A DNA stretch of 64,000 nucleotides from Thermoanaerobaculia bacterium (GCA_963664405.1 OY761158.1:960001-1024000); one strand, 5' to 3'. Counted from the stretch's first letter, positions 8,379 to 52,643 are shown. The notes: generated from the letters alone by a model not told the origin. Program-made: numbers and translations.

Positions 8379-8557
8379 CTAGACGAGCGTTTCCGAAGTT
8401 CGAGTCGCATAGCTCGAGGTCATTCTGTTCGCTGGCAAGGCGCGCCGACGCAGGCATATTGGGAATCTGTCGAGGAGCGCGGGGGCGCCTAGCCAACGCC
8501 GCCAGCGGGCAGAAGGGGCCGAGATAGGTAGCGCGAACTTTGGAAACGCTGGTCTAG
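8379..8557 (+). repeat. CTAG-bounded palindromic MITE-like element, copy 1 (179 bp, 13 bp longer than copies 2-4)
   Basis: Ends CTAGACGAGCGTTTCCGAAGTTCG and CGAACTTTGGAAACGCTGGTCTAG; closely matches copies at 17479, 20204 and 32047. Confidence 0.9.
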
Positions 8558-10797
8558 TCCACATAACCCAAGGCTCTCATCTGTTCGAGGACCTCCGGCT
8601 CGAGATCCTCTTCATCGACCGTGGGAACCGCCTCCGTGGAAGCTTCCACGGAGGTCAGCAGGATGCGGAAGTACTCGCTCAGAATCGGCCACTCGGCGGC
8701 GACGTTAGTTCTCTCACCAGGATCCGAGACGCGGTCGTAGAGCTGGACGTCGGAGCCCATATTCTCGGACTGCGGCAGAATGAATCGATGCGTCGGTGTA
8801 GTAACGCTCCGCCCTGTGAACCCGTCAACATCGATCGTCGAGAGGATCCACCCGCCCCCCCCATCCGAGGCCGCTGAGCCCCGTAGGATCGGCATCAGGT
8901 CGCGGCCTTCGACAATTTTCGGTGCCTCGACGCCAAGGTACGCCAGGAGGGTCGGGAGCAGGTCGACGTGCTGGACAGGCTGCTCGATCCGCGCCCCGCG
9001 TGCGAGATCGGGAAAGCGGACGATGAGGGGCACATCGAGGACTTCGGTATAGAGCGAGTGGCCGTGCTGCCAGCGGCCGTGCTCACGGAACTCCTCGCCG
9101 TGGTCGGAAACGAATACGACGATAGTGTCGGCGGCGACTGGAGAGCGTTCCAGGATGTCTAGAAAGTCGCCGAAGTTCGCGTCGGCACCGGCAACTTCGG
9201 CATCGTAGAGGGCGAAGAGGTCGGCCGTGAGCTCGGGACTGGCCTGGACTTCGTCGTGGGCCAGCTGCCGGAGGATTCGCAGTGAAGTGAGCTCGGAGTC
9301 GTCGGCGTTGGGGGCGAATCGTTGCTGGAAGCCTGGAGAGGGTGAGTAGGGTGCATGGGGCTCCACGGTGTGTAGATACACAAGAAAAGGACGGCTCTCG
9401 TCTTCGCGCTCCGAGAGCCAGCGCTCGAAGGTCTTGTTGAGATCTCGGGCCGGCCCTCGGCCGGTCAGGCGATAATTGTCGAACCCCTGGCCTAGCCCGA
9501 AGCGTCCTGCCACGTTGGGGTTATTGACCCAGCCCATCGTCGCGTACCCCTCGTCGCGGAGTACCTCGGCCAGGGTCACGTTATCTTCGGCCAGCCGATG
9601 GCGCCGATCCTGAACGCCATGGGTATCCGGCCCCAGGCCAGTGAAGATCGACGCCACCGAAGGCCGCGTCCACGATGACTGCGCGACCGCCTGCTCGAAG
9701 AGCGTGGCTGTTTCAGCGAACCCGTCGATCCTCGGCATCAGTGACCGATCGGCTCCATAGCCACCCAGACGATCTGCTCTGAGGGCGTCGACCATATAGA
9801 TCACGACGTTCTCGCGTCGGCCGGCGCCTTCTGCGTGTGTGGGCCTCTCTGGCATCTCCGGAAATTCGATTCGTGGCAGCTCGAGGCGCAAGGGGCTCGA
9901 GCTTGCCCCGGCTCCGCCCGCCGACCTCGAGATCGCGGCGAAGGAGAGACGCACCACCCCGGCTTGGCCGCCTAGCCCGAGCCGCTGACCTCCATCGGCG
10001 TTCCCCAGCTCGGCCGAGATCGGCGGCTCCTGATCCCGAGCGACATCGATCTTGAGGACTCCTTCGTCGTCTCCACTCAAATCGTCAATCACCAGCATCG
10101 CGCCGGCGGGCAGCCGGAGGTAGTAATCGACCTGTGTTCCGTACGGAAGGATCAGCTCGTTGGAGCGCACTTCCACCTGGCTCTTCTCACGCGGCGCCGG
10201 GCCTTGAAAAGAGACAGAGTCCCAGGCGGCTGCGAGCTCTCTCTTGTCTTCTGTCCCAAGCACCTCGCTGGGCGCCACCGCAAAGGCGCTGCGAAGAAGC
10301 AGCTCGTTGGAGCCCCTTCGCAAGGCGCGAGCAGGGAGGTCGAAACGCAGCGTCCCGCCGCCCTCCGCCAGCGGTGCCTCGTCGAGTACGACTCCGTTGA
10401 CCTCGACACCGATTGTCTGGCCGCCGGAATCGGGATAGGCCAAAGACCAGCCGCGCAGCTCCAAGCGGAGATCGTGGGAACCGAGGGCGAAAAAGGAGAG
10501 GGTCGACTCGCGGCCGACAGCCCAGACGAAGGTCCTCTCGCCTGGGGTCCCCTCGTCCGTGGACCAACCCTCACGAAGAACAAGACGCCCAGCCTCGGTG
10601 CCGAGATCGAAAGCCGCCGTCTCTTGCCGTACCTGAGCATCAGGGAAGGCCGCTAGTAGGTCCAAGCCGGCGCCGCGCCGAGGCGCTGCCGCTTCGCGCC
10701 CGCCGCAGCCATTGGCCATGACGGCCATCGAAACGGCAAGCAGGGTCGGAGCGAAAGCGAAGGGCCTCGAGATCCCGGCGGCGATCACGGCTTGCAA
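8554..10797 (-). CDS. Sulfatase-like hydrolase/transferase lipoprotein; start uncertain
   Basis: VDALRADRLG, QSSWTRPS, SDHGEEF, LRALGY-type C-terminus; N-terminal beta domains; lipobox-like ANGC. Confidence 0.85.
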   Translation of the reverse strand: MQAVIAAGISRPFAFAPTLLAVSMAVMANGCGGREAAAPRRGAGLDLLAAFPDAQVRQETAAFDLGTEAGRLVLREGWSTDEGTPGERTFVWAVGRESTLSFFALGSHDLRLELRGWSLAYPDSGGQTIGVEVNGVVLDEAPLAEGGGTLRFDLPARALRRGSNELLLRSAFAVAPSEVLGTEDKRELAAAWDSVSFQGPAPREKSQVEVRSNELILPYGTQVDYYLRLPAGAMLVIDDLSGDDEGVLKIDVARDQEPPISAELGNADGGQRLGLGGQAGVVRLSFAAISRSAGGAGASSSPLRLELPRIEFPEMPERPTHAEGAGRRENVVIYMVDALRADRLGGYGADRSLMPRIDGFAETATLFEQAVAQSSWTRPSVASIFTGLGPDTHGVQDRRHRLAEDNVTLAEVLRDEGYATMGWVNNPNVAGRFGLGQGFDNYRLTGRGPARDLNKTFERWLSEREDESRPFLVYLHTVEPHAPYSPSPGFQQRFAPNADDSELTSLRILRQLAHDEVQASPELTADLFALYDAEVAGADANFGDFLDILERSPVAADTIVVFVSDHGEEFREHGRWQHGHSLYTEVLDVPLIVRFPDLARGARIEQPVQHVDLLPTLLAYLGVEAPKIVEGRDLMPILRGSAASDGGGGWILSTIDVDGFTGRSVTTPTHRFILPQSENMGSDVQLYDRVSDPGERTNVAAEWPILSEYFRILLTSVEASTEAVPTVDEEDLEPEVLEQMRALGYVD

Positions 10798-10877
10798 TCG
10801 TACCCCTTCACTCGAAAGCGCGGTGTGGAATCGGGCGCCAGTGCCGTCCTTCCTAGTGCCATGTCGGAGACACAACA

Positions 10878-13208
10878 CTAGGGTGTAAAGACCCGGAGCT
10901 CTGAGACCGACCACGCCGTAAGCATCTCGTAGGACAACTGCCGCAGCCGGATGAAGCGCGCCACCTCAGCTCCCAGCGGAAATACCAAGGGCATCGCCTC
11001 CAGATCGTGAAGAGCGGCGGAAACGGTGTGGGCAAAGGTGGTGCCATGCCAAGCTTCTCTCCACTGCTCTCCGTCCGCGGAAAGCTCGATGACGAGTTGA
11101 AGGGGGTAGTGGCTTCGGTGGGGACCGAGCTCGAGCACGACTGCCCCCAGCTTCGCCTCGACCCCCAGGTCGACGGTGAGTTGGTGAGGCTCGCGCTGCG
11201 ATCCGGCCATCCACACCGTCCCGCTGTCGCCGTCGTCGACGAAAGCCACCGCCTCCGGGTTGCTGTCGCTGCTCACCGCGGCGAGCCGGAGCTCGCCGCC
11301 GAACGACTCGGACACCGGGAACGGTGCCGCCGGCTCGAGATTGTAGAGAACCTGATCGCCCTCCTCTCCCAACCGCTGTGCACCTTCATAGCCCCCCACG
11401 TAACGCTCCCATCGCTGTCTGCGGCCATCGCCACCCTTGATCAGCACATGGCGCACGCCGAGCCCGGCAAGCAGGCGTAGCACTTCGGGGTCGCGCCACC
11501 GCAAGCCCTGCTGCAAAGCCCTGTAGTGCGGTGCGCGGTACCCACTCCGCCCGTTGACCACAGGCTGACCATGGCCGCTGGAGCGATACGCGGCCGCGAG
11601 GTCCTGCCTCTGCCCGCCGAGCGGCAGCTCGAGGACCGGCCCTGTGGCGTTTTCATCGAGCAGCCGCGAATGGCGAGGTGCTGGAAAGGTCGGCATTGCG
11701 AACATCCAACCGTCGGCGAGGATCCCAATCGACACCAACGCCAGGAGGGTCCGGCGCCATCGACCAGACGGCGACACGAGGCGAGCGAAAATAACACCTG
11801 CGAGCGCGGATAAGCAGAGAACGGCCAGCATCCAGAAGCGGGCTGGTACTCGCACGCCGTCGAAGCCGGGTAGAAGCATCAGCCACCGGAACGGGGCGGT
11901 GGTCAAGATCGGCTCGTCCATCAGGGTCGGCTTCGGCCCCAGGGCAAGCACCCAGAGCAGAGCCGCCGCCAACAGATAGAAAAGGGGGACGGACTTGCGG
12001 CGCCAGGCGCCGAGGAGGGCCGGACCGCTGAGAGCGAAGAGCGTCCACACCGCAACCGTCAGCGTGACTGCCCGGCTGAGACGACTGACCGAAAGCTCGA
12101 GGCCGAGGAGCCCGACCTCCCAGGGTCCGAGCGCCAGCCGGGCCGCCAGCGCCAGGCACCCCGCAACGCCAAGCACACCGAGCACTCGGTGCACGCGACT
12201 GAGCCACCCCGGCGATCGCTGCTTGTCCGGCCTGGGCAAGCGCACAGCTGCACCGACGATCAAAAGTAGGATGGTCAGCCCTGGAAAGAGCTTCATCCCC
12301 GTCGCCTTGCGGAATCGATGCTCGAAACCCCAAGCCGTCAAGTTCTTCGAGGCGCTCAAGAGATCCGTCAGGTCGGCGCTGAAGTGCTCCGCCTGGACCA
12401 CCGAGCGTGAGAACCCGAGGCTCTCGTGCACCTCACTGTAGTGCAGAAGCACCGGCAGGACCGGTAGATGGGCGAGCGCTGCGACCGCGACGACAGCCCC
12501 CACCCGACTACCAACGCGACGCCACCCCACCCTCGGATCGACGATGAACCAGAGAGCCCAGAGGCCAACCAGTACCGGGACGTAGAGCATGTAGTACAGG
12601 TTGCACAACCCCTGCATCAATAATGAGAGGCCGAAGAGGACGAGCCACCGGCGGCGACCCCGGCGGAGATAGCGGTGCAGTCCCAGCAGCACCAGGGGCA
12701 TCCAAAAGGAAGCCAGGACCTGAATGTGGGTCAGCTGGTCGGCGCGATAGGGGGCGAAGCCGAACGCCAGACCGACAATCCAGCCCGCGTCGCGCCTCCC
12801 GGTGAGCTCGTGACCGAGAAGATAACCGGCAACGACAGAGAGAGGAAAGGTGAGCAGCAACACCAGGTTGTAGGTAGCCACAGGACTGGCGGTGAGCCAG
12901 GAAATAGGGGTCGCCAGGAAGGAGAGACCGACCAGGTTCTCCGAATACGCCATCACGTCGGTAGCCGGATAGAACATGGGGGCGCTCCACCAACGGTCGG
13001 TAAACGGTAGGACCTGACCGTTCCACCACAGAATCCAGCTGGTGAGAACCGAATCGCTGACGCCGGCCACGATGACCGTACGAAGATGCAGGATCAGCGG
13101 GAAGGTCAGGGCCACCGCGATCACGGTGTAAGCGACAAAGGCCCACGGCGCGGAGAATCGCCGCCAGGGAGACCGGCCGGCCGGGCGCGTACCTGCGTCT
13201 GACACCAT
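10878..13208 (-). CDS. Polytopic membrane protein (GT-C/YfhO-like) with C-terminal F5/8 type C (discoidin) domain
   Basis: Many TM segments, FYP..AYSE, RVPARF, VNGRSGY; C-terminal DGD..T.W, VDLG, S.DG..W, ARFIRL. Confidence 0.7.
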   Translation of the reverse strand: MVSDAGTRPAGRSPWRRFSAPWAFVAYTVIAVALTFPLILHLRTVIVAGVSDSVLTSWILWWNGQVLPFTDRWWSAPMFYPATDVMAYSENLVGLSFLATPISWLTASPVATYNLVLLLTFPLSVVAGYLLGHELTGRRDAGWIVGLAFGFAPYRADQLTHIQVLASFWMPLVLLGLHRYLRRGRRRWLVLFGLSLLMQGLCNLYYMLYVPVLVGLWALWFIVDPRVGWRRVGSRVGAVVAVAALAHLPVLPVLLHYSEVHESLGFSRSVVQAEHFSADLTDLLSASKNLTAWGFEHRFRKATGMKLFPGLTILLLIVGAAVRLPRPDKQRSPGWLSRVHRVLGVLGVAGCLALAARLALGPWEVGLLGLELSVSRLSRAVTLTVAVWTLFALSGPALLGAWRRKSVPLFYLLAAALLWVLALGPKPTLMDEPILTTAPFRWLMLLPGFDGVRVPARFWMLAVLCLSALAGVIFARLVSPSGRWRRTLLALVSIGILADGWMFAMPTFPAPRHSRLLDENATGPVLELPLGGQRQDLAAAYRSSGHGQPVVNGRSGYRAPHYRALQQGLRWRDPEVLRLLAGLGVRHVLIKGGDGRRQRWERYVGGYEGAQRLGEEGDQVLYNLEPAAPFPVSESFGGELRLAAVSSDSNPEAVAFVDDGDSGTVWMAGSQREPHQLTVDLGVEAKLGAVVLELGPHRSHYPLQLVIELSADGEQWREAWHGTTFAHTVSAALHDLEAMPLVFPLGAEVARFIRLRQLSYEMLTAWSVSELRVFTP

Positions 13209-13437
13209 GACTCAGCGGACAGTCTACTAGCCGCCTCCGCCGAATGAGAGCCAAGGGCCCACTCATTGGGTCGAGGTGCACAGGGACCGGCACGAGGTTA
13301 CCCCTACTCGGGCGGCCCAGAGCTGAAGACCTCTTGAACACAGCCCGCCGAGGGATTGGCGGGGGCGGTATGATCGCCCCACGTTCTACGGAGGGGGTTC
13401 CGACTCCCGGCAGAGACAGCGTCGAGGAGCCTTGGCG

Positions 13438-13923
13438 ATGAAGGGAACACTGAAGGTCGTTGGCGCAGGCGTGACTCTATTGGTCGTTTTCGCCCTCGGG
13501 TGGTTGCTCTCAGCGACCGGCGCCGGACAGGCCGCGGCACCGGAGAGCTTGAGTGAGCGCGAGAGAGCTTTCACCGAAAGGATGCAGAACGTCGTCCTGA
13601 TCGGCAACTTCACGATCGAAGGACGTGACGTGCCGAGGGGTCGGCCGGAGCGCTACGAGATCTCCAGCGTCACCAAGCTCGACGGCGATCGTTGGCGCTT
13701 CAACGCTCGAGTCACCTACGCCAGCGTCGACGTAACCGTGCCCGTCGTCGTTCCGGTCCTGTGGGCCGGCGGCACCCCCATGGTCGCTATCACCGATGCT
13801 GCGCTACCGGGACTGGGCGAAGGCTTCAGCGCCCGAGTACTCTTCTATGAGACCCGCTATGCCGGAACCTGGGATCACGGCGAGTACGGCGGGCTCATGT
13901 ACGGCACCATCGAGCCGATGTAG
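13438..13923 (+). CDS. Hypothetical exported protein
   Basis: Upstream GAGGAG, signal peptide, co-oriented with the MOSC gene. Confidence 0.7.
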   Translation: MKGTLKVVGAGVTLLVVFALGWLLSATGAGQAAAPESLSERERAFTERMQNVVLIGNFTIEGRDVPRGRPERYEISSVTKLDGDRWRFNARVTYASVDVTVPVVVPVLWAGGTPMVAITDAALPGLGEGFSARVLFYETRYAGTWDHGEYGGLMYGTIEPM

Positions 13924-13952
13924 GCCGATCGACGTCAGTCAGAGGAGAGAGC

Positions 13953-14417
13953 ATGAACGGCAAAGTCGAATCGATTCACATCGGTATTGATGCAGGCTCG
14001 ACCATGACTGAAGTCGCCGAGGCGAAGCTCGAGGCCGGCAGGGGCATCGCCGGTGATCGCTACCACTCCCGGATCGGCACCTTCTCCCCTGATCCGCCCG
14101 ATCCCGACCACGAGCTGACTCTGATCGCCGCCGAGGAGATCGACGCCTTCAACGAAGCCGGCGGCCGCTCCCTGAGCGCAGGAGAGCTGCGCCGCAACAT
14201 AGTGACGCGCGGCGTCGATCTCAACGCCCTCGTCGGCAAAGAGTTCACCATCGGCCCCGTAAGAATCCAAGGAATCCGCCTCTGCGAGCCCTGCTCCTAC
14301 CTAGCAGACCTCATCGGCCCCGACATCCTCCCCACCTTGGTCAGCAGAGCCGGCCTGAGAGCAGGCATCATCGAAGGTGGAACGATCCAAGTCGGCGACC
14401 GCCTCGAGGCATCGTAG
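13953..14417 (+). CDS. MOSC domain protein
   Basis: GIAGDRY, RRNIVTRG, LCEPC, GG.I.VGD. Confidence 0.9.
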   Translation: MNGKVESIHIGIDAGSTMTEVAEAKLEAGRGIAGDRYHSRIGTFSPDPPDPDHELTLIAAEEIDAFNEAGGRSLSAGELRRNIVTRGVDLNALVGKEFTIGPVRIQGIRLCEPCSYLADLIGPDILPTLVSRAGLRAGIIEGGTIQVGDRLEAS

Positions 14418-14526
14418 CGCCACAGCTGTGTTGCTCGATCGGCATTTCAAGAAGATCGAGACGGCGAGCAACACGCGGCCTCAACCCGCACGGCCCCGCC
14501 CCGCCGCCGCGCTCAACGCCCCAGCT

Positions 14527-15030
14527 TCAGAAATACGGGTAGTACATCCGCCAGAAGTTGGGGTCATCGTTTTCGGCCCATTTGGGGCCGAAGGCTCGCT
14601 CGAAGAAGTCGCCGAGGCGGTCGAAGAGGAGCTGCCAGGTCGAGCCGCCTCGTCTGGCGGTCGCCAGGAGGTCGACAAGAAAGGCGTCGAGGTTGGCTAG
14701 CTCTTCTTTCGGCAGATAGGCAAGCGCACCCTTGTTCACCGAGTCTTTGAGCGTCTCGACGCTCACGGCGTGAGCGGTCAACATCACCGTCGGGATGTCG
14801 CACTTCACCGTCTCTGACAGCAGTTCCTGCCCGTTCACGCCCATGATGTCGAGGATCGCCAGGTCGTAGCTATTGACCTCGAGCTTAGCCAGGGCAGCTT
14901 CGAAACTCTCGGCGGTATCGACTTTCGCGTCCTCGAGAACATCGACGATGGACTCGAGAACGTCCGGCTCGTCGTCGACGGCAAGGATGTGGAGGCCCTC
15001 CAGTGTCTCTAACCCTTCACTCTCGCTCAT
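14527..15030 (-). CDS. Single-domain response regulator
   Basis: ILAVDDE, LDIMGVNG, MLTAH, YLPK. Confidence 0.9.
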   Translation of the reverse strand: MSESEGLETLEGLHILAVDDEPDVLESIVDVLEDAKVDTAESFEAALAKLEVNSYDLAILDIMGVNGQELLSETVKCDIPTVMLTAHAVSVETLKDSVNKGALAYLPKEELANLDAFLVDLLATARRGGSTWQLLFDRLGDFFERAFGPKWAENDDPNFWRMYYPYF

Positions 15031-15063
15031 CGCTCTTTCTCCTTTCCTGTTCTGGGCTTCCGA

Positions 15064-15903
15064 TCAACTGCCCGAAGGCGCCTCCTTGTCGTCCGCCATT
15101 CTGCCACCTTCAAAGGCGACAGGAATCTCGAGACGAAAAAGGGCACCTCCCTTCGATGCATCTTCAACGGAAACCTCTCCACCGAGACTGCGAGCGAGAG
15201 CCCGGGCGCCGGCCAGGCCGAGACCATGACCCGACTCCGAGCCGCTCTCCCCCGTCCCGACACGAGCATACCGCCGAAAGACTGTCTCTCGCTCTTGCGG
15301 CTCGATACCGGGCCCATCATCTTCCACTTCCACGGTCACGATCCCGTCGACCAGCTCAGCGTGAATCCGGAGCGCCTTGCGACGAAACTGCACGCCATTG
15401 CGGAGCAGGTTGCCGAGAATCTGCTCCAGCTTCGTCGCATCTTGTTCCATTTCGAGACTGTCGATACCGGGTCCCAGGTCCAGCAAGACGCCTTCCTTCT
15501 CGAGCGCAAGCAACGCCAGCGCATCGTCCTCCGGAAGTCGGCTGGATCGCTCCGCCTCCACTACTTCGAAGGACTCTAGAACAGCCGGGAGCAGAACATC
15601 GCGAAACCGAAAGTGAAGGATGCTGAACTCTTCGGCATCGGCACGCGCCAGCTCCAAGAGATCGTGAAGCATTCGACGGGTCTTGAGCACACCGCGCAGA
15701 GCCCGCTTCAGGCTGCGCTCCTGCCGGTCCGACAGGACTCCGTACCTCTCCCGCTTCTCCAACAAGGGTCGCACCGCCGCTTCGACGACCGAGATCGGAC
15801 TCTTGAGATCGTGGACGAGAAGCTCGATCGAGATCTCCCGAAACGGCGAGCCAGGTGCGGCCTCTCTAGGCTCTTCGGGCGGGTCCCGGCGAGCGCTGGT
15901 CAT
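15064..15903 (-). CDS. Cytoplasmic histidine kinase without sensor domain
   Basis: HDLKSP H-box, NLLRNG, DDGPGI, GLGL. Confidence 0.88.
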   Translation of the reverse strand: MTSARRDPPEEPREAAPGSPFREISIELLVHDLKSPISVVEAAVRPLLEKRERYGVLSDRQERSLKRALRGVLKTRRMLHDLLELARADAEEFSILHFRFRDVLLPAVLESFEVVEAERSSRLPEDDALALLALEKEGVLLDLGPGIDSLEMEQDATKLEQILGNLLRNGVQFRRKALRIHAELVDGIVTVEVEDDGPGIEPQERETVFRRYARVGTGESGSESGHGLGLAGARALARSLGGEVSVEDASKGGALFRLEIPVAFEGGRMADDKEAPSGS

Positions 15904-17333: not shown

Positions 17334-17463
17334 CTCGGCGTCGAGCCTTGCCGTCGGCTGTTAGTCTCGCCCGAGGGCGAACTATAGCAGCGCAGGTCCT
17401 CCCGCACTTCTCGCGGGTCCTCCGCACAGACTCGCGGACCGGCGCTAGGGGAAGGGATTGGAC

Positions 17464-18177
17464 ATGGCACGCATTCCACTAGACCAGCGTTTCCAAAGTT
17501 CGTGGTGCATAGCTCGAGGTCATTCTGTTCGCTGGCAAGGCGCGCCGACGCAGGCATATTGGGGAATATGTCGAGGAGGCGCAACGCCGTCAGCGGACAG
17601 AAGGAGCCGAGATATGTGCGCGAACTTTGGAAACGCTGGTCTAGTAGACCCGAAGACGAGCGAGGGCTACGCCTCGAAGGTGTTCGAAGCGCAAGAGAGA
17701 ACCTGGGGAGCACCGCTTCTCAACCATCGGATCTATGCCCGGCGACCGGCGCTACTAAGAGCGGTAAGGGGCATGTGGACAGGATTGAACGACGGCGGAC
17801 TCCTCGATGACACGCTGTTGGCCCTGGTCAACCGCCGCGTCGCGGGCTTGAATGGCTGCGTCTTCTGAGCGGATCTCAACGCTGCAGTTGGCAGCGCTCT
17901 GGGAATCGCAGACAAGAAGCTGCTCGCCGTCGAGATCTACGCCACGAGCCCGCTGTTCAGCGATCGAGAGCGTGCCGCTCTCGAATACGCCGATGCCATC
18001 ACGCTGTCGGACCGCGACTTGAGCGAGGCTCTATTCGCTCGCTTACGGCGCTTCTTCGACGAAGACGACGTTGTCGAATTGACCGCAGCCATCGCCTGGG
18101 AAAACTCTTCGAGCAAGTTCAACCGCGCGCTCAGAATCGAGTCCCAGGGCCTCTGGAAACCCGATCGAGTGGGCTGA
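17464..18177 (+). CDS. AhpD/carboxymuconolactone decarboxylase-like probable selenoprotein (CVFU) with an in-frame 54-codon repeat insertion
   Basis: RVAGLNGCVF-TGA(17866)-ADLNAAVG...FSDRERAALEYADAIT...VVELTAAIAWEN..SKFNRAL continues in frame; hairpin follows the TGA. Confidence 0.85.
17479..17644 (+). repeat. Palindromic MITE-like element, copy 2 (166 bp), inside the AhpD-like gene
   Basis: Perfect terminal inverted repeat CTAGACCAGCGTTTCCAAAGTTCG. Confidence 0.92.
17869..17896 (+). promoter_or_regulatory. Putative bacterial SECIS element
   Basis: 11 nt after the TGA: stem CGCTGC, loop AGTTG, stem GCAGCG. Confidence 0.6.
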
Positions 18178-18246
18178 GGCCGTGCAGCGAGACGGGGCCT
18201 CGTGGCGGCGCGCAGCCAGTGGCCGGCGGTGGCATATGATGGGACG

Positions 18247-19563
18247 ATGCGAAGACTGAATCAGGTGAAGCTGCTCTCGCTGGTCTTGATGCTGGCGCTC
18301 AGCCTCACTACCACCGCCTGCGACGTTCAGTCGCGGGCCGACATCCCCGCGCCCCAGCCGCGCAATCTGAGCCCGGCGTCCCCAGAGGATGTTGGTATGT
18401 CGACCGAGCGCCTCGGCCGTCTCTCGGTAGCGATGCAGAACATCGTAGACGAGGGCGAGCTCGCCGGCATCACGAGCATGGTGGCTCGTCGCGGCAAGGT
18501 CGTCTACGCCGAGACCTTCGGCCATCAGGAGATCGCCTCCGACACGAAGATGGATATCGACACCATCTTCCGCATCTATTCGATGTCCAAGCCGATCACC
18601 GGAGTGGCCATGATGCTTCTCTACGAAGAGGGCAAGTTCCGACTCTCCGACCCGGTTGAGAAGTACATCCCCGAGCTCGAGGGCCTCGAGGTCGCAGCCG
18701 GCGAGGGGAAGGACGGGCCCATCGTGGAAGAGGCCGACCACCCAATGACCATCCGCGAGCTGATGAGCCACACCGCTGGGCTCTCCTACGGCATCTTCTC
18801 CCAGTCCCAGGTCGACGATATGTACCAGGAGGTCAATGTCCTAGATTCGAAATCGACGCTGAGAGATATGATCGAGAAACTGTCGAAGATCCCGCTTCGC
18901 CAACAGCCCGGCTCGCTCTGGCACTACAGCGTGGCGGTAGATGTACAGGGCTATCTCGTCGAGGTCCTGTCCGGCAAGTCCTTCGACCAGTTTCTCGAAC
19001 AAAGGATCTTCGAGCCCCTCGGAATGAGCGACACCGCATTCCACGTGCCCCCTGAGAAGACCGATCGCTTTGCCCAGGTTTACTCTTATGACGAGGACAG
19101 GGATCTAGTCGCCCGGGAGGGCGGCGGCGGGTCGCGGAGCTACTTCGAGCCTGCGACGTTCTTCTCAGGCGGTGGCGGGTTGGTCTCGACCACCATGGAC
19201 TACATGCGCTTCTGTCAGATGCTCTTGAACGGTGGAGAGCTCGACGGCGTAAGACTGCTCTCCCCGCTCACTGTCGATCTCATGCACCGCAACCAGCTCC
19301 CTCGAGAGATGGGTGAGATGTCCCCGGGAGGCGGTACCGGCTTCGGTCTCGACTTCGCCGTGGTCCTGGACCCAGTCGCCGCCGACGGAGTGTCGAGAGG
19401 CGAGTACTACTGGGGTGGCGCCGCCGGCACATGGTTCTGGATCGATCCGGCCGAAGACTTGGTCTTCGTCGGCATGATCCAGCAATTCGGGCAAGGCCGA
19501 CCCGATCTTCGGTCGCTGTCTCGAAGGCTCACCTACCAAGCCATCGTCGACTCCGATAGCTGA
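18247..19563 (+). CDS. Serine hydrolase, beta-lactamase class C-like (lipoprotein)
   Basis: FRIYSMSK (SxxK), HTAGL, WHYS, WGGAAGT. Confidence 0.9.
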   Translation: MRRLNQVKLLSLVLMLALSLTTTACDVQSRADIPAPQPRNLSPASPEDVGMSTERLGRLSVAMQNIVDEGELAGITSMVARRGKVVYAETFGHQEIASDTKMDIDTIFRIYSMSKPITGVAMMLLYEEGKFRLSDPVEKYIPELEGLEVAAGEGKDGPIVEEADHPMTIRELMSHTAGLSYGIFSQSQVDDMYQEVNVLDSKSTLRDMIEKLSKIPLRQQPGSLWHYSVAVDVQGYLVEVLSGKSFDQFLEQRIFEPLGMSDTAFHVPPEKTDRFAQVYSYDEDRDLVAREGGGGSRSYFEPATFFSGGGGLVSTTMDYMRFCQMLLNGGELDGVRLLSPLTVDLMHRNQLPREMGEMSPGGGTGFGLDFAVVLDPVAADGVSRGEYYWGGAAGTWFWIDPAEDLVFVGMIQQFGQGRPDLRSLSRRLTYQAIVDSDS

Positions 19564-19595
19564 AGCTCCCGCCTCGATCAGCGCCAAAACGAAGA

Positions 19596-20186: not shown

Positions 20187-20203
20187 TCGAGCCCCCGGCC
20201 CAT

Positions 20204-20369
20204 TAAGACCAGCGTTTCCAAAGTTCGTGCTGCATAGCTCGAGGTCATTCTGTTCGCTGGCTAGGCGCGCTGACGCAGGCATATTGGGAAATATGTCGAG
20301 GAGGCGAAACGACGCCAGCGGGCAGAAGGGCCCCAGATATGTGCGCGAACTTTGGAAACGCTGGTCTAG
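20204..20369 (+). repeat. Palindromic MITE-like element, copy 3 (166 bp)
   Basis: Same termini (left end TAAG instead of CTAG); intergenic between the pdxH-like gene and recQ. Confidence 0.9.
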
Positions 20370-20477
20370 TCCGTCGAAAGCTCCTGCAAGGTTGATGGGG
20401 AACTTTGCGTCCCCTATTGGCAGGGGCCCCAAGCCCACGGCAAAAAGACCGACTCGCGCGGGGTACTATCGAGCGAC

Positions 20478-22364: not shown

Positions 22365-22428
22365 GCGGGCCGGCCGCGGGAGGGGGTCTCGGGCGCGTCA
22401 CAGCCTCGAGATCTGGACGCGAGTGCTA

Positions 22429-24443: not shown

Positions 24444-24464
24444 TACTCGCTCACTCCCGACATC

Positions 24465-29029: not shown

Positions 29030-29031
29030 TC

Positions 29032-31451: not shown

Positions 31452-31464
31452 CCGTGTGCCCTTC

Positions 31465-31917
31465 CTAGCTCGCCACCGCAGTTAGCTCGACAATCGGAAT
31501 CTCGCGCTCCGTCCTCTTCTGATAGGTGTCGTAGTCGCTGTAGATCTCCAGGAAACGAGGCCATAGCTCGCCACGGCGCGCTGGCTCCGCCGTCTCTGCA
31601 CGCGCCTGCAATCGCTGCGCTCCGACCTGGATCTCAACCGCGGGATCGTCGACGAGATTCAGGTACCACGCCGGATGCCGATCGGAGCCACCATAGGAAG
31701 CGACCAGCGCGTAGCCGGTCTGAGTCTTCAAATAGAGAAGAGGCAGCGTTCGCGGCAAGCCGGTCTTGCGACCGGTTGTCGTGAGTAGAAGAATCGGTCC
31801 GGCGAGCCAACCCCCGACCCTGCCCCGGCTCACCCGATAGAGCGCCTTGTGCACTCCCACGAAAGCCTGGAAGAGATGGTACCGGAAATCTCCGGGATTC
31901 GGTTTCGGAGGGGCCAT
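31465..31917 (-). CDS. Deazaflavin (F420)-dependent nitroreductase family protein (Ddn-like)
   Basis: LLTTTGRKTG.PR..PL, ASYGG..HPAWYLNL, REIPIV. Confidence 0.88.
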   Translation of the reverse strand: MAPPKPNPGDFRYHLFQAFVGVHKALYRVSRGRVGGWLAGPILLLTTTGRKTGLPRTLPLLYLKTQTGYALVASYGGSDRHPAWYLNLVDDPAVEIQVGAQRLQARAETAEPARRGELWPRFLEIYSDYDTYQKRTEREIPIVELTAVAS

Positions 31918-32046
31918 GAGCTCCTGCAAGCATACCGCTTAGCGTGCAGGTGACGGCGTGCGGGTCACGGCGTGCCTGTTTTCGGCCTGCTTGTCGCGGC
32001 GCGACGGCCACAGGAAGCCGGCAGTACCAACAGGCTGCTTCAGGGA

Positions 32047-32212
32047 CTAGACCCGCGTTTCCAAAGTACGTGCTGCATAGCTCGAGGTCATTCTGTTCGC
32101 TGGCTAGGCGCGCTGACGCAGGCATATTTGGAAATATGTCGAGGAGGCGAAACGACGCCAGCGGGCAGAAGGGCCCGAGATATGTGCGCGAACTTTGGAA
32201 ACGCGGGTCTAG
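32047..32212 (+). repeat. Palindromic MITE-like element, copy 4 (166 bp)
   Basis: Terminal repeat carries a compensatory pair change (GACCCGCG...CGCGGGTC). Confidence 0.92.
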
Positions 32213-32222
32213 GCGATCAGCC

Positions 32223-32252
32223 TTGAGTAGACAACCGGCAAAGTGCTAGCAT
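32223..32252 (+). promoter_or_regulatory. Possible sigma70 promoter of typA
   Basis: TTGAGT-N18-TAGCAT with a TG extension. Confidence 0.35.
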
Positions 32253-32357
32253 CCTTTCTGCCTCTACATGCCACCCTCGGCCTACCGATCCCTACACAAA
32301 ATCTCGCTTCTCTCGTCCCCTGTCGCTGACAGTCTCGCTTCTGCTGAAGAGCTCGCC

Positions 32358-34205
32358 ATGACCACAGCCATCGCTTCCCCACCCGTTGCCAACAAGCGTG
32401 AAGATCTACGCAACGTAGCGATTATTGCCCACGTCGATCACGGCAAGACGACCTTGATCGATGCGCTGCTATGGCAGAGCGGCATCTTCGAAGCGCACGA
32501 GTCGATCAACGAGCGGGTACTCGACTCGATCGACCTCGAGCGCGAACGCGGCATCACGATCATGGCCAAGAACACGGCCATCGACTATCGCGGCACCCGC
32601 ATCAACATCGTCGACACTCCGGGCCACGCCGATTTCGGCGGCGAGGTCGAGCGCACCCTGAAGCTGGTGGACGGCGTGCTGTTACTGGTCGACGCCAGCG
32701 AAGGTCCCCTCCCCCAGACCCGTTTCGTGCTCAAGAAGGCGATGGAATCCGGGCTGGTTCCAGTGCTCATCATCAACAAGATCGATCGCGCGGATGCCCG
32801 CGCCAGCGAGGTCCTCGACGAAGTCTACGATCTGTTCATCGATCTAGGGGCGAGCGACGACCAGCTCGGTTTCCCCGTGCTCTACTGTAATGCCCGGGCC
32901 GGGCTCTGCCGCCGCGAAGCCGACGGCGAAGACTTTCCTCTCTCAACCCTCCTCGACGAGATCCTCGAGACTGTGCCTGCACCGGTCTATGACCCGGACG
33001 CCCCGCTTCAGTTCTTGGTTACCAGCCTCGAATACGACGACTATGTCGGGCGTTTGCTGATCGGCCGCGTAGTCAATGGGTCGGTCGCCAAGGGACAACA
33101 AGCAGTGCTGTGTCGGCTCGACGGCAGCAGCGTGCAGGTCAAAGTCACCCGCCTCTACTCTCATCGAGGGCTCGAGCGCAATGAGGTGAGCGAGGTGGGT
33201 CCGGGCGAGATCGTCGCAATAGCCGGTGTCGACGAAGCAACGATCGGCGACACCCTTTGCGCCGTCGAGGACCCGCGGCCGCTGCCTGGAATCAGCATCG
33301 AAGAGCCGACGATGAGCATGCGCTTCTCGGTCAACAACTCTCCTTTCGCCGGTAGAGAGGGGCAGTATCTAACCTCGAGAAGGCTCCGTCAGCGCTTGCT
33401 GAAAGAGGCGCTCCACAACGTGGCGATAGAAGTCATCGAGACCTCTTCCACCGACTCGCTCGAAGTCGCCGGCAGAGGAGAGCTACAACTCGCGATTCTG
33501 GTGGAGACAATGCGTCGTGAGGGCTACGAGCTCGGGCTCGGCAAACCGCAGATCATGACCCGGACCGTTGATGGCGTACTCGTTGAGCCGGTCGAGATTC
33601 TTCTGGTCGACTGCCCTGAGGAGTTCGTCGGGAATGTCACCCGTCTCCTCGGACCCCGGAAAGGCCGCATGATCGAGATGGCCCACCAGGGCAGTGGGCG
33701 GGTCCGGCTCGAGTTCCGCGTACCTTCTAGAGGGCTTATCGGCCTGCGATCGCCGATGCTCGGCGAAACTAGAGGCACCGCCATTCTCCACCACATTCTC
33801 GACGGCAACGAGCCCTGGGCCGGCGAAATCCCACAGCGAGCGACAGGTGCCTTGGTAGCCGATCGTGCCGGCCGGGTCACCGCCTACGCCTGCGACCACC
33901 TCAAGCCGCGCGGCGTGCTCTTCACCCCGCCCGGATCCGAGGTCTATGCGGGCATGATTGTCGGCGAGCACTCGCGCCCGGGTGACCTCGATGTCAACAT
34001 CACCAAAGAGAAGAGGCTGACCAATATGCGGGCCGCCTCGTCCGACGACTTCGTCAAGATCTCGGGCATCAGAAGCATGAGCCTCGAGGATGCAATCGAG
34101 TTCCTTGCCGAGGACGAGGTCGTCGAGGTGACGCCAAAGGCCTTCCGCCTGCGCAAGCAGTCTCTTCGGGCCTCGGACCGGAAGAAGCTGACACCCACGG
34201 ACTGA
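32358..34205 (+). CDS. typA: Translational GTPase TypA/BipA
   Basis: [42 protein letters not shown]. Confidence 0.95.
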
Positions 34206-34245
34206 AGTGGGCCGAGGCTCATTCGACAACGGCGAGGAGTAGAAG

Positions 34246-35238
34246 ATGAGCGAGACCTTCCGCGCAGTGGTCGCGGACAAAGTTGACGACAAGCACTGCG
34301 TCGCCATCCGCGATCTGTCTGTGAGCGACCTCCCGGAGCACGACGTCCTCGTCAACGTCGAGTATTCGACCCTCAACTACAAAGACGGCCTCGCCGTCTC
34401 CGGCGCGGCTCCCATCTGCCGTAGCCTCCCGATGGTATGCGGCATCGACCTGGCGGGAAGCGTGGCCGAATCGTCGTCCCCGGATTGGAGCCCAGGAGAC
34501 CGGGTACTGGTCAACGGCTACGGTCTCAGCGAGAGTCACTGGGGTGGTTACAACCAGAAGGCGCGTCTCGATCCGGGCTGGCTGGTCAGAGTCCCCGATC
34601 CCTTCACCGCCAAAGACGCCATGGCCATCGGTACCGCCGGATACACCGCGATGCTCTGCGTGATGGCACTGGAGGAGCACGGCTCGACGCCAGAGGGCGG
34701 GGACATTCTGGTCACCGGAGCCGCCGGAGGCGTCGGATCCGTCGCCGTCGCCCTGCTCGCAGGCCTCGGATATCGGGTCATCGCCTCGACCGGCCGAGCC
34801 GAGACCCATGACTACCTGGGAGAGCTCGGGGCCTCCGAGTTTCTCGACCGCGAAGAGCTCGCGGGCAAGCCGCGCGCCCTCGGCAAGGAACGCTGGGCGG
34901 GAGCGGTCGACGCCGTCGGCTCCACCACCCTGGCAAACGTCCTGGCGCAGACCCAATACGGAGGCTGCGTGGCCGCTTGCGGACTCGCCGGAGGTATGGA
35001 CCTACCCGCGACCGTCTATCCCTTCATCATCCGCGGTGTGACTCTCGCCGGCATCGACTCGGTGATGGCGCCGATGGCGCGCCGAGAGGAAGCTTGGCGG
35101 CGGCTGGCTCGGGACCTACCGATCGAGTCACTGCGCAAGATGACGCAGGTGGAACCGATGAGCGAGATCGAGAGCCTGGCGAAAAAGATTCTCGCCGGCG
35201 CAACTCGCGGACGAGTCGTCATCGACGTAGCCTCCTGA
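34246..35238 (+). CDS. acuI: Acrylyl-CoA reductase AcuI/YhdH family
   Basis: YSTLNYKDGLA, GTAGYTAMLCV, GAAGGVGS, PFIIRGV.L.GIDSV. Confidence 0.9.
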   Translation: MSETFRAVVADKVDDKHCVAIRDLSVSDLPEHDVLVNVEYSTLNYKDGLAVSGAAPICRSLPMVCGIDLAGSVAESSSPDWSPGDRVLVNGYGLSESHWGGYNQKARLDPGWLVRVPDPFTAKDAMAIGTAGYTAMLCVMALEEHGSTPEGGDILVTGAAGGVGSVAVALLAGLGYRVIASTGRAETHDYLGELGASEFLDREELAGKPRALGKERWAGAVDAVGSTTLANVLAQTQYGGCVAACGLAGGMDLPATVYPFIIRGVTLAGIDSVMAPMARREEAWRRLARDLPIESLRKMTQVEPMSEIESLAKKILAGATRGRVVIDVAS

Positions 35239-35291
35239 AGTGATTGCTATCACTTCCTCCGGCTACCATTACATGGCGCCGAGGACGGCGC
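35227..35291 (+). repeat. 40-bp imperfect palindrome plus REP-like hairpin, copy A
   Basis: GTAGCC..GAAGTGAT-TGCT-ATCACTTC..GGCTAC, then TGGCGCCGAGGACGGCGC; matches 57684-57749. Confidence 0.7.
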
Positions 35292-35359
35292 GTCCTGAAC
35301 TGGCGGCGCATCCAGACTCCTCGCGCAGGCTCCTGAGGGCTACACCGCTGAGAGTCTTC

Positions 35360-35677
35360 TCAGTTCTGCAGCGCCAGAGCGAAGTGTACGGCCTCGTCGA
35401 CGGCCGAGATCTTCTCTGGGCGCAGGAGGCAGATCGGGTCGTGGAGCGAGCTCTTCGAGATCGTCACCAGGCTGTCGAGATTCACCACGCACTCTCGCGG
35501 CAGGCCGTCCTCCGGCCCGAGAGGCACCTCGACCGGGATTTTTCGCACTCGCGTACTGAGAGGCGCTACAGTCACCAGCCTCCGCACCGAGTAAGCTTCG
35601 TTCCGAGACAGGAGCAGCACAGGACGTCGGCCTGCCTGGCCTCGAAGGTCGGCCCACCAAACCTCTCCACGTCTCAA
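35360..35677 (-). CDS. mazF: MazF/PemK family toxin
   Basis: RRGEVWWADL, RRPVLLLSRN, VAPLST, VNLD. Confidence 0.9.
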   Translation of the reverse strand: MRRGEVWWADLRGQAGRRPVLLLSRNEAYSVRRLVTVAPLSTRVRKIPVEVPLGPEDGLPRECVVNLDSLVTISKSSLHDPICLLRPEKISAVDEAVHFALALQN

Positions 35678-35925
35678 TCCCAGTCGCTCCCCTCGAGGAT
35701 CGGCTGCGCCGCCTCGCTGGCGGCATGCGCTTCCTCTTCGGTCTCCGGCTCGGCCATGTAACCGGCGACGTAGGCCGCCAGCTGCAACTCCTCACGGGTC
35801 CGATCCACCAGGCCCTCGAGAGCTCGTCGCACCAGCTCGCTGCGCGACTCACCCTCGCGCCGGCACTCCCTCTCGGCCGTCTCCAGCACTTCGGGCGGAA
35901 GACTCACTGAGATCTTCGTTGCGAT
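35674..35925 (-). CDS. Ribbon-helix-helix antitoxin; start uncertain
   Basis: KISVSLP...SRSELVRRAL; 4-nt overlap with the toxin gene. Confidence 0.8.
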   Translation of the reverse strand: MATKISVSLPPEVLETAERECRREGESRSELVRRALEGLVDRTREELQLAAYVAGYMAEPETEEEAHAASEAAQPILEGSDWD

Positions 35926-36060
35926 GGCCCTTTTGGGGCCGACCCCACCAACAGACCAACTGGTTGGGAGCCGCCCACGACCCGGCAAGGTCGGCCGGTC
36001 GCCGTCTACTTCAATCTGACGGTGAAGTTCGACCTGCAATAGACTACTGCGCGGGGACAA

Positions 36061-38184
36061 TTGAGAGCTCGCGCCAACTCCGCAATCGTAGTGTCGAGCT
36101 GCCTCCTCGGCACCCTCTTCTTCGCAGCCTGCGCCAACGAGGCGCAGCGCATCGACCCCGAGCCGACTCTGATTCTGGATCTCGTCCGCGACGGAGAGCC
36201 CGAGGACCAAGAGATTCTCGCCTTGGATCTCGGCTCACCCGAATCTCGGGCGAGCCTCCTCTCGGGTTGGTCCGCCGATACGACTAGAGGAGGTAGGACC
36301 ATCGTCTGGGCCGAGGGCCGCGAGTCGGTGTTGGAGCTCACCCTCCCTCAACCCTCTCCGCTCGTGGTGAGATTCGTCGGCAGGGGTTACGGAAGGACAA
36401 GGGGTGCCAGCCGAATCGCGATCCTCCTGAATGACTCACCGGTCGGCGAGATCCTGCTCCACCGGCGATGGAGGGCGGTCCCTCACTATCTGAGGTTGCC
36501 GGCGTCGGCCACCACCGCGGGCACCAATCGCTTCCGTCTCGTCTACTCCGATCGCGCGTCGGGCGACGACAGACACGACGAACGTCGAAGGCGGATAGCC
36601 TGGGATCGCATCGATATCCTGAAAGCCACTCGCATCGAGCGGGTGGAAGAAGACGGGGAGATACGGCTGCCGGCGGGAGACAGCCTCAGTTCCACCGTCC
36701 TCGTGACCGGCTCCAGCGCGCTTCACATCGACGGAATGACTCTGCTCGGAGAGGCCAGCGGACTGCGCGTCGAGCGTCGGATCGACGGCCAGGCGTCTGA
36801 AGTCTTGACCGTCATCGCCGACCCCAACACTCAACCCGTCGAGCTGAGCTCGGACCCCGGTCTCGTGACCCTACGGCTGGTGGCGGAAGGGCCACCGGGC
36901 TCGTCAGTCGTGCTGAGAAATCCGCAGCTGCGAGGTTCCGGCCGCAGGTCGCGGCGCCCGAACCTCATCCTCTACGTGGTCGACACCCTGCGCGCGGATC
37001 ATCTCGGCTGCTACGGCTACCCGCACGCCACCTCGCCGAGACTGGATGCTCTGGCCAAGGACTACCTTCTCTTCGAGGACGCGGTGTCGCAGTCGTCCTG
37101 GACGCGACCTTCGGTCGCTTCGATCATGACCGGTCTGGACCCCAGAGCTCATCGCGCGGTCAACCGAGATGACGGCATCCCGCAAACCGCCACGACGCTG
37201 GCCGAGGAGCTCGGGCGCCTCGGCTACCGGACCGGAGCCGTCATCACCAACGGCAACGTTCACGGTCGCTTCGGTTTCTCCCAGGGCTTCGACGACTACA
37301 TGTATCTTGGCGAAGACGCCGGAACCGTCAACCTACACAAGACCGCGCACATGGTGCACGAGAGAGCCGAAGAATGGATTCGATCGCTGGCGCACGGCAA
37401 GCCGTTCTTCCTCTACATGCATACGACCGACCCGCATGACCCTTACACTCCGCTCTCCGATCCGGAAGCCTGGAACGAGGTCTCCGGCCTTCTCGCTCAA
37501 TCGGCGGAATCGGTCGGCGCAGAGGACATTGCCAAGCTCACCTCTCTCTATGACCTCGAGATCCGCCAGAACGACGAGGCCTTCGGGATGATCCTGGATC
37601 TTCTGGTCGACCTGGGCCAATGGGACGACACGATGGTGATCTTCACTTCGGATCACGGAGAAGAGTTCGGCGACCACGGCGGCTTCCGACACGGGCGCAC
37701 CCTCTTCGACGAGCAGATCCGCGTGCCGCTGGTCGTCAAGCCCGCCTCGCCTCCCGATCCGATCCGAGTCGCTGCGACGACGCGCCTTACCGACATCTTC
37801 CCTACCGTGCTGGAGGTTGTCGGCCTGGAGCCGGGTGCCGAAGTGGACGGCCGGAGCTGGCTTCCCTCCATAAGCCAAGGAGCTCCGCCAAGGCCCGCCT
37901 TCTCTCATCTGGAGCTCGACGGCCGCTCGGCCGAGAGCGTTGTGCTCGAAGAGTGGAAGCTGATTCGCACCCGCGAGGACGGCGGCTGGCGCACTCAGCT
38001 CTTCGATCGACGTCGGGACCCCGGCGAAGAGCAAGACCTGGCGGAGCAGGAGCGCGAACAGCTCCGCCGGATGGCAACTCTTCTGACAGCCCACAGCGAA
38101 GCCCAGATACCCATGTCAGGCACCAAGATCGAGATCGATGCAGCCCTCAAGAAGAGGCTCGAGGCCGCCGGTTATCTCAAATGA
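36061..38184 (+). CDS. Sulfatase-like hydrolase/transferase lipoprotein (paralogue of 8554-10797)
   Basis: Lipobox FAAC, VDTLRADHLG, QSSWTRPS, SDHGEEF. Confidence 0.85.
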   Translation: MRARANSAIVVSSCLLGTLFFAACANEAQRIDPEPTLILDLVRDGEPEDQEILALDLGSPESRASLLSGWSADTTRGGRTIVWAEGRESVLELTLPQPSPLVVRFVGRGYGRTRGASRIAILLNDSPVGEILLHRRWRAVPHYLRLPASATTAGTNRFRLVYSDRASGDDRHDERRRRIAWDRIDILKATRIERVEEDGEIRLPAGDSLSSTVLVTGSSALHIDGMTLLGEASGLRVERRIDGQASEVLTVIADPNTQPVELSSDPGLVTLRLVAEGPPGSSVVLRNPQLRGSGRRSRRPNLILYVVDTLRADHLGCYGYPHATSPRLDALAKDYLLFEDAVSQSSWTRPSVASIMTGLDPRAHRAVNRDDGIPQTATTLAEELGRLGYRTGAVITNGNVHGRFGFSQGFDDYMYLGEDAGTVNLHKTAHMVHERAEEWIRSLAHGKPFFLYMHTTDPHDPYTPLSDPEAWNEVSGLLAQSAESVGAEDIAKLTSLYDLEIRQNDEAFGMILDLLVDLGQWDDTMVIFTSDHGEEFGDHGGFRHGRTLFDEQIRVPLVVKPASPPDPIRVAATTRLTDIFPTVLEVVGLEPGAEVDGRSWLPSISQGAPPRPAFSHLELDGRSAESVVLEEWKLIRTREDGGWRTQLFDRRRDPGEEQDLAEQEREQLRRMATLLTAHSEAQIPMSGTKIEIDAALKKRLEAAGYLK

Positions 38185-38188
38185 CGTC

Positions 38189-38355
38189 CTAGTGTCCCGT
38201 GCGGGAAGTTCGTTGCCATTCGAGCGCCGATGCATCCCGCTGGGCGGCGTTGCTCCTCGTCGACAGAGTCCCAGCTATGCCTGCCTCGGAGCGCCTTGCC
38301 CAGCGGGCGCCTCGACGCTCTCGGTGGTCAACGAACTTCCCACACGGGACACTAG
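38189..38355 (-). repeat. Divergent palindromic MITE-like element (167 bp), same core with different arms
   Basis: Ends CTAGTGTCCCGTG..GGGAAGTTCGTTG; minus-strand core GCAAGGCGCTCCGAGGCAGGCATA...TGTCGACGAGGAGCAACGCCGC. Confidence 0.88.
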
Positions 38356-49525: not shown

Positions 49526-49880
49526 GGAAAGGCGCTTGGCGATGCGGTAATAGGCGCCAAGCGTAGTGCGGCGAGCGTCCTTGGCTTGATCGACGTCGAG
49601 GGACCAATCCGGATCCGGCACGACGTAAGGCGCCTTTTCGTCCGAGCAGACTCCCATGCTGTGCCAACCCTGCACAGCACCGCCACAGCTGGAGCCCGAG
49701 TAGCCTTCGCCCTCCCACTCGTCGAACTTTTTCGCCATCTCGTAGAGCATGCGAGAGCTGACCAGCCGCGTTTCATCGCGTGCCCGCAGTTGGTGGTTGA
49801 TGACTGCAGCGAGCCCGAAGCCAGTGCAGGCTCCCTCTTGACCTTGGTCGAGGACGGTTCTCTGCGCCGGCGGGTCGATC
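49526..49880 (-). pseudogene. C1 (papain-like) cysteine peptidase fragment
   Basis: LDQGQEGACTGF motif; cut by IS6. Confidence 0.75.
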
Positions 49881-52572: not shown

Positions 52573-52643
52573 CGCTTGTCTCCAGTCACGATTTTTTGGT
52601 TCAAGGTGGCCGGGAGCCGCGCCATTGAAGCACGCTCTCTGGG

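Follow-up and report, generated by a model that had tools for sequence, protein, structure and literature searches.

Putative IS630-type palindromic elements of a Thermoanaerobaculia bacterium carry a strand-specific folded core that is probably shared with ERIC repeats

The stretch of DNA investigated in this study, which encompasses 64,000 nucleotides of the genome of a Thermoanaerobaculia bacterium (GCA_963664405.1 OY761158.1:960001-1024000) and is referred to as the window, contains several copies of a palindromic element whose structure, mobility and kinship with known bacterial repeats we have characterized. In an earlier note, made from the sequence alone, the element had been described as a family of CTAG-bounded hairpins of about 166 bp, with four close copies on the plus strand and a divergent fifth copy on the minus strand. 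All five are found at the described places, with small corrections of their limits, and are listed below with their neighbouring genes, their structured cores and a sixth relative that had been overlooked.

8379-8557, plus strand: copy 1, subfamily A, 179 bp (net insert 175), carrying an extra module of 13 nt; its right CTAG provides the stop codon of a sulfatase gene (8554-10914, minus strand)
8426-8512 (genome 968426-968512), plus strand: structured core of copy 1, with the 13-nt module included
8478-8490, plus strand: optional 13-nt module in copy 1
10853-10881, minus strand: sixth relative, a collapsed, core-less 29-bp copy of subfamily C
17479-17644, plus strand: copy 2, subfamily A, 166 bp (net 162), flanked by divergent genes
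17479-17502, plus strand: left terminal inverted repeat of copy 2
17527-17598, plus strand: structured core of copy 2
17621-17644, minus strand: right terminal inverted repeat of copy 2
20204-20369, plus strand: copy 3, subfamily A, 166 bp (net 162), with a PNPOx-family gene on one side and recQ on the other
32047-32212, plus strand: copy 4, subfamily A, 166 bp (net 162), upstream of typA/bipA
38189-38355, core on the minus strand: copy 5, subfamily E, 167 bp (net 163), located between convergent genes and sharing the stop codon of an SDR gene (38352-39140, minus strand)
38236-38307, minus strand: structured core of copy 5, placed on the basis of an identical subfamily-E sequence (L096:49-120)

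The described termini and length apply to copies 2 and 4, whereas copy 1 is longer and copy 3 begins with TAAG instead of CTAG. Copy 5, described as divergent, is not a decayed member of the family but belongs to a separate young subfamily of eight copies which are 99.3% alike. The compensatory changes that had been noticed between copies are all present in the alignment, including the replacement of A:T by C:G in the terminal arm of copy 4, the exchange of GCGCC/GGCGC for GCTCC/GGAGC and the swap of a C-G for a G-C pair between the G-A tandems. Likewise, the window contains no transposase with matching ends, as its IS5, IS6 and IS91 pieces are bounded by other sequences. A nest of mobile remnants at 48720-55562 comprises an IS6-type transposase, two IS5-type copies (50172-51280 and 54472-55562), a truncated IS91 and a recombinase fragment. 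The multiple of three that had been noted for the net insert does not hold for the family at large. A net length divisible by three is found in copies 2 to 4 but neither in copies 1 and 5 nor in most of the family (104 of 246 copies genome-wide), and two to four of six frames are free of stop codons in each window copy. No NCBIfam match was obtained for seven translated frames, and the frame is kept in 16 of 27 intragenic copies (p=0.08). From the distribution of lengths and from frame conservation, coding potential is thus no trait of the family, and a general adaptation to coding or in-frame insertion is not supported.

The copy number in the genome, which consists of a single contig of 6.78 Mb, shows that the family is very abundant. 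A profile of the core finds 268 matches genome-wide and none in the reversed genome, and 246 complete copies, nearly all of 165-168 bp, can be assigned to ten types according to their ends (A 139, F 27, B 22, C 15, H2 12, D 11, G 10, E 8, H1 1 and I 1). These end types are mostly 50-75% alike, with closer pairs in C and D (82%) and H1 and H2 (86%). Members carry terminal inverted repeats, and CTAG is found at both termini in 197 of 247 copies. In the gene context obtained with a home-made gene caller, 219 of the 246 copies are intergenic compared to 3295 of 6996 other CTAG sites, and 108 copies occupy a TAG stop codon. Subfamilies A, B, F and G share the 13-nt module, which 38 of their complete copies contain, and 11 complete type-A copies possess a different optional insert of about 70 nt (such as the one at G000:C1:481085-481341). 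Inserts are known to occur within ERIC (enterobacterial repetitive intergenic consensus) repeats, and both modules recall them. Collapsed copies of 29 bp that have lost the core are found 12 times. Subfamilies A and C are also present in a record titled Acidobacteriota. Other mobile DNA has entered some of the copies: one type-A element contains what appears from its open reading frames alone to be an IS21-type element (G000:C1:6281698-6285334), type-G elements have received IS1182-type copies at their CTAG ends, and family elements nest in one another's CTAG ends. At G000:C1:3207503-3207584, ARAGORN calls a tRNA-Pyl with a CTA anticodon, which may be a false call.

The most distinctive property of the family resides in the center of the hairpin. 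This core of about 70 nt consists of a basal bulged loop formed by CAAGG and AAC, a short stem, two sets of tandem G-A pairs surrounding a lone C-G pair, a G-U followed by a C-G pair and an apical stem-loop. When 25 cores were aligned with MAFFT and evaluated against a structure set by hand, changes on both sides were found in 18 of the 26 pairs, a result that was obtained in none of 500 shuffles and that lies far above controls with a slid structure. In 73 cores fitted to a model, about 20 of which are its training sequences, 24 of the 26 pairs covary. Relatedness is not fully corrected for by either control. The lone C-G pair is formed in all 73 rows that contain it and has changed on both sides 16 times, and the G-U pair is conserved as such in 44 of 73 cases (with 9 GC and 5 AU) and is invariant in 12 ERICs.

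The fold is specific for one strand. Copy 2 has a predicted folding energy of -111.5 kcal/mol on the core strand (z -15.4, reached by 0 of 200 shuffles) and of -84 kcal/mol on the opposite strand, and each of 208 distinct sequences of up to 200 nt folds better on the core strand with RNA and DNA parameters alike. On this strand, arm mismatches of the G-T type prevail over A-C (45.9 vs 9.3) and those of the A-G type over C-T (29.8 vs 1.6). The strand-specific excess of G-U wobbles that had been noticed in the window holds family-wide, although the predicted folds of copy 5 itself contain four on the core strand and seven on the other. Deamination bias was considered as a source of the G-T excess and is rejected for mutations that arose after insertion, since private mutations are strand-symmetric (C>T 2.6 vs G>A 2.4 per 1000). 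As these private mutations are unbiased, the asymmetry of the fold reflects which master copies have multiplied. In line with the selected folded form that the earlier note had proposed, covariation and the G-U and G-A asymmetry, which has no counterpart in mutation bias, show that the core has been selected to fold as one particular single strand.

These results bear on a simpler explanation, in which the element is an ordinary MITE (a miniature transposable element with inverted repeats) whose hairpin has no specific role, with pairing maintained by repair that homogenizes palindromes and the core shared by descent and recombination between families. The covariation of the outer 22 pairs does follow trivially from the symmetry of the ends, collapsed copies have spread without a core, and optional modules are common to several subfamilies. 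Homogenizing repair would nevertheless remove the invariant bulges and tandem G-A pairs, and it would produce no strand asymmetry. Moreover, recent mutations are symmetric whereas fixed mismatches are not, and loop bases are conserved as far as ERIC. We thus regard an inert hairpin as rather improbable.

Evidence for mobility comes from an empty site and from the sequence of the ends. Copy 2 is absent from a related strain, in which a contig of run X9 connects the sequences on either side of it and lacks 162 bp, corresponding to the net insert, although this observation relies on a single contig with a depth of 2.5 and the site reads CCAG. The collapsed copy at 10853-10881 is skipped in a contig of run X10. 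Contigs of both runs also skip 1005 bp (18465-19469) within an open reading frame of the beta-lactamase family (18202-19563). The end consensus of type A is identical in 24 of 25 positions to the right end of an IS630 transposon in an alphaproteobacterial genome (G159), whose transposase matches NF033545 with 211 bits and of which a full copy is bounded by CTAG at both ends. This match marks copies 1 to 4 as IS630-type MITEs, which presumably have been moved in trans, as judged from the resemblance of the ends. A pattern scan of GTDB genomes for the type-A end finds at least 36 stretches, and among the matches listed, the end directly follows the transposase in one alphaproteobacterial genome. 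The resident IS630 of the Thermoanaerobaculia genome, a frameshifted form of 1245 bp with two open reading frames, has ends that agree with those of types E, H2 and I in 17-19 of 25 positions, with copy 5 agreeing with its right end at 17 of 25, whereas types B, C, D, F and G agree with the described IS630 ends at only 6-14 of 25, the values for B, C, D and F being 11-14. Other IS630 ends have the CTAG start and a TTCC(A/G)AA motif in common. The non-autonomous mobile element that the earlier note had inferred is in this way borne out by the number of complete copies (246), by the site that lacks an insertion in a relative and by IS630-matching ends.

The core extends far beyond this genome and is found between different ends. 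A core model detects it within the phylum in 38 of 120 further genomes, in 5 of 81 genomes of another phylum and in a Myxococcales genome, and a second model in 25 of 101 genomes of a gammaproteobacterial sample drawn from the class of a Legionella-titled genome. Pattern scans of viral contigs retrieved chance matches or a single element. No conclusion drawn here depends on the unpublished genome G382. The end types surrounding the core vary widely among these genomes. In one of them (G149), those of the core element are similar to the ends of a resident IS1182-like element (154 bits, below the cut-off and in a partial frame). Another end type resembles an IS5 element of G042 (280 bits). Many elements contain two inverted cores, one on each strand. 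Seven such double-core elements of 240-290 bp often have a CTTCGG/CCGAAG hairpin between the cores and fold about equally well on both strands. Conversely, six loci of alphaproteobacterial genomes show type-A or near-A ends around quite different hairpin interiors, some of them in tandem arrays. The variety of ends on the core, together with the presence of type-A ends on unrelated hairpins and the core-less copies, indicates that ends and core combine freely.

In another explanation, the core would be a second layer of selfish DNA, a hairpin resembling REP or attC sites that an HUH or tyrosine enzyme, which acts on single-stranded DNA in its folded form, would place or amplify and that would hitch-hike on whatever DDE ends it lands between. 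The same core is indeed found between unrelated ends and as inverted pairs, and Geobacter copies lack obvious long terminal repeats in the consulted part of PMC2700814. In addition, the genome contains 13 matches to Y1 transposases, and a cassette encoding a tyrosine recombinase and an IS91 transposase is located in the apical loop of two type-A copies, with a remnant of it in a third:

G000:C1:6758845-6761548: recombinase and IS91 cassette in the apical loop of a type-A copy, between AAT repeats
G000:C1:6272418-6275121: second cassette in the same position of a type-A copy, between AAT repeats
G000:C1:2170874: cassette remnant in opposite orientation

These cassettes might, in another scenario, represent the autonomous parent, a 2.7-kb element with both enzymes encoded between the halves of the hairpin, of which there are two full copies at different sites. 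This candidate is rejected. Of 80 related cassettes, all bounded by ends of their own, none shows the core at E<0.05 (the best value being 0.077), and the remnant in the third copy is connected to the loop the other way round, so that the cassette is to be viewed as a passenger. Since another copy holds an apparent IS21-type passenger and the ends are of the IS630 type, we consider descent from the 2.7-kb element very improbable. In one cassette relative (L213), the right end is joined to the left end as in a circle or tandem, and this junction suggests an integrase-type insertion at the loop. The absence of the core from the 80 IS91/integrase loci equally speaks against the selfish hairpin, as do the lack of a Y1 gene flanked by family ends, core borders that are not sharp, with arms that covary continuously with the core, and a replication bias (see below) opposite to that expected for targeting of the lagging-strand template. 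An origin as REP/REPIN (RAYT) or IS91-derived element finds no linked HUH gene bounded by the same hairpins among the 13 Y1 matches and the 80 loci. We hence assign a low probability to an independently amplified hairpin, of the same order as that of the inert one.

The presence of the core in ERIC was investigated in Escherichia coli K-12 with repeats which we take to be ERICs from their sites and sequence. A third model (R3), built from 16 longer cores of other bacteria with none from E. coli, places all 13 ERIC loci at the top of 19 matches and on the core strand, nine of them at E<0.05. In a search of the whole E. coli chromosome, ERICs are found at E values of about 1e-4. The third model also scores window copies 1-4. 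With plain core models, scores are confined to the one or two best ERICs (E 0.004 and 2e-4), and an nhmmer profile of the core has no match on the ERIC between aceF and lpd. From these sequence comparisons, ERIC is probably a relative sharing the core, and the likeness thus exceeds the general comparability that the earlier note had claimed.

To approach the question of what the fold is selected for, we analyzed the orientation of the elements. With respect to host genes it is unbiased, the ratio of sense to antisense copies amounting to 55:56 where the neighbouring genes are co-directional and to 49:59 for copies at stop codons, which argues against selection via host mRNA in this genome. With respect to replication, the core strand corresponds to the leading-strand sequence in only 107 of 268 matches (161:107, p=0.0012) and thus avoids the lagging-strand template. 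This bias is stable to shifts of the skew-defined origin and is present in both replichores. The lack of bias towards host genes combined with the modest bias towards replication indicates that selection on the fold probably acts on the spread of the element itself.

An alternative view attributes the core to RNA. Accordingly, it would fold in read-through transcripts, where a host RNase or RNA-binding protein would make insertions tolerable or alter the stability of mRNA, as proposed for ERIC in Yersinia, while the movement would still be of the IS630 type. The conserved G-U pair and the tandem G-A pairs would be in agreement with such a role, and so would the location of 108 of 246 copies at TAG stop codons, the placement of one core on each strand by double-core elements and the weak match of two Rfam small RNA families to ERIC. 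Orientation-dependent effects of ERIC on mRNA have also been reported (PMC2229807, in the part consulted). Conversely, the orientation towards host genes is unbiased, the asymmetry of the fold is equally obtained with DNA parameters, and in copy 2 we found neither a sigma-70 promoter nor a terminator. An RNA element is therefore a possibility to be taken seriously, albeit one that we consider unlikely on balance. On the narrower question of which molecule folds, the null result for gene orientation and the replication bias on one side and the conserved G-U pair and ERIC mRNA effects on the other divide our estimate, with single-stranded DNA as somewhat favoured candidate, RNA following closely and any other form as minor contribution.

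The reading that we prefer, and consider fairly probable, holds that the elements are MITEs moved by IS630-type DDE transposases which target CTAG, and that they carry a strand-specific folded module of about 70 nt, common to ERIC, whose fold serves their own propagation. In this mechanism, an IS630-family transposase would read the terminal repeats of about 24 bp and move the element in trans, with the module riding between the ends, as it would between IS5- and IS1182-like ends elsewhere, and with ERIC as its enterobacterial form. In the single-stranded state that accompanies the element's own propagation, the fold would be recognized. The most likely agent would be a widespread nucleic-acid-binding factor of the host, which would make the copying or survival of a near-palindrome more efficient. 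The fold would thereby assist movement without being required for it.

Several observations weigh against this proposal. There is no known partner for the core. In its own genome, scans with PF13359, PF01609, PF13358, PF01797 and PF04986 and a genome-wide scan for TAG...CTA inverted repeats, the latter alone covering transposase families beyond these five, detected no insertion sequence whose ends are exactly those of types A-D or F. The ends fit a strict target duplication poorly: of 492 ends, 26 show a variant at the outer T of CTAG and 6 at the inner A, and a variant never affects both TA copies alike. These variants fit a blunt insertion of AG...CT better than a strict duplication of TA, although errors in the sequencing of hairpin ends are possible, and the net length of the insert agrees equally with both. 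A duplication of all four bases of CTAG was rejected because the variants at one terminus are not those at the other. In alphaproteobacterial genomes, type-A ends enclose unrelated hairpins, and the 12 core-less copies of 29 bp have spread as well. The replication bias, obtained in one of several tests of genomic context, is modest and is reached by 17 of 340 rotated origins; it could not be replicated in another genome with 145 matches (G112), where the origin was unplaceable from 20 sampled stretches of 20 kb. Orientation biases of IS630 are described as mixed and with other explanations in the part of PMC3971601 consulted. Finally, most training rows of the third model were chosen by an ERIC-aware filter, and the recovery of ERIC is in consequence good but not blind evidence, and a plain core model (R1) misses ERIC genome-wide in E. 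coli.

The spread of ERIC-type repeats and the reason for their conserved structure have been open questions for decades. The family described here links an ERIC-type structure to young, near-identical copies (as in subfamily E with 99.3%) and to identifiable transposases, which makes the question of how such repeats spread testable in E. coli. The covariance models further permit the annotation of a very common repeat without Rfam entry in many genomes. If the core was inert, the family would be one more family of MITEs.

With respect to prior description, Rfam has no match at the gathering score in the window, a best score of 20.6 bits, below this threshold, on eight representatives and no match on the cores of 20 other loci. 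The consulted parts of three MITE reviews (PMC10969869, PMC3184786 and PMC2229807) describe no shared core, and the last of these states that for ERIC no DNA motif other than the ends is known. PMC2996986, as far as consulted, mentions palindromic multicopy families without detail. In a literature search with most subscription journals outside its range, we found no description of a core common to ERIC and other MITEs. The suggestion that the family might be uncatalogued thus stands for Rfam, but the IS630-type MITE is a known class and a Geobacter family bearing the core is listed in Fig. S1 of PMC2700814.

Among known systems, IS630-mobilised MITEs such as the pneumococcal RUP (PMC2229807, in the part consulted) share with our elements a length of 100-200 bp, a non-coding sequence, TA termini, IS630-matching ends, a long stem-loop and a mostly intergenic location. 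They differ in that we observe ten end types around one interior in a single genome, conservation that extends beyond the ends into the folded middle, and a poor fit to strict TA duplication. ERIC resembles the core, on the same strand, in its basal loop of (C/G)AAGG...AACGC, where one and the same position is often unpaired, in the tandem G-A pairs and in a G-U followed by a C-G pair before the apical stem. It is itself about 127 bp long, has a further helix in its center and is bounded by short ends with TA, unlike the window elements of 165-168 bp with their long arms and IS630-type ends. The 24 'short RNA elements' of Geobacter metallireducens (Gmet_R1001-R1024) were listed without function in 2009 (PMC2700814). 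In the part of this source that was consulted, they are about 113 bp long and described without terminal repeats, mobility or strand-resolved structure, and many rows of its Fig. S1 show, by eye and on the opposite strand, the extended core with CAAGGCG, GGCGTA-loop-TACG and CAACGC. The Desulfotalea-1 motif, judged by eye from the part of PMC2864571 consulted, has a different sequence and was dismissed. Rickettsia palindromic elements (RPEs) of the RPE-1 type are TA-bounded rod hairpins whose GA-rich internal loops and apical stem look similar by eye. The comparison to RPEs made in the earlier note is suggestive in this respect, but the top three R3 matches in RPE1-bearing alphaproteobacterial loci, which are located on RPE-like elements, are not significant (E 0.9 or higher, best 0.93-1.4), no RPE peptide model matches the window copies and in-frame insertion is rare here.

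Pursuing these likenesses further, it is conceivable, although we hold it tentatively and as rather less than probable, that ERIC, the Geobacter repeats, the window elements and perhaps RPEs constitute one bacteria-wide superfamily built on a single folded single-strand module that was captured by MITEs of several unrelated transposase families, the module being either bound by a conserved host factor or part of a fold-back strand that is the substrate of transposition. If true, the latter would explain the constant length of 160-168 nt, the pairing of the whole arm and the apparent lack of true target duplication. Compared to the described systems, the IS630-type MITE constitutes an ordinary class, and what distinguishes the family is its folded middle, which recurs between many other ends in distant bacteria and appears to be related to ERIC.

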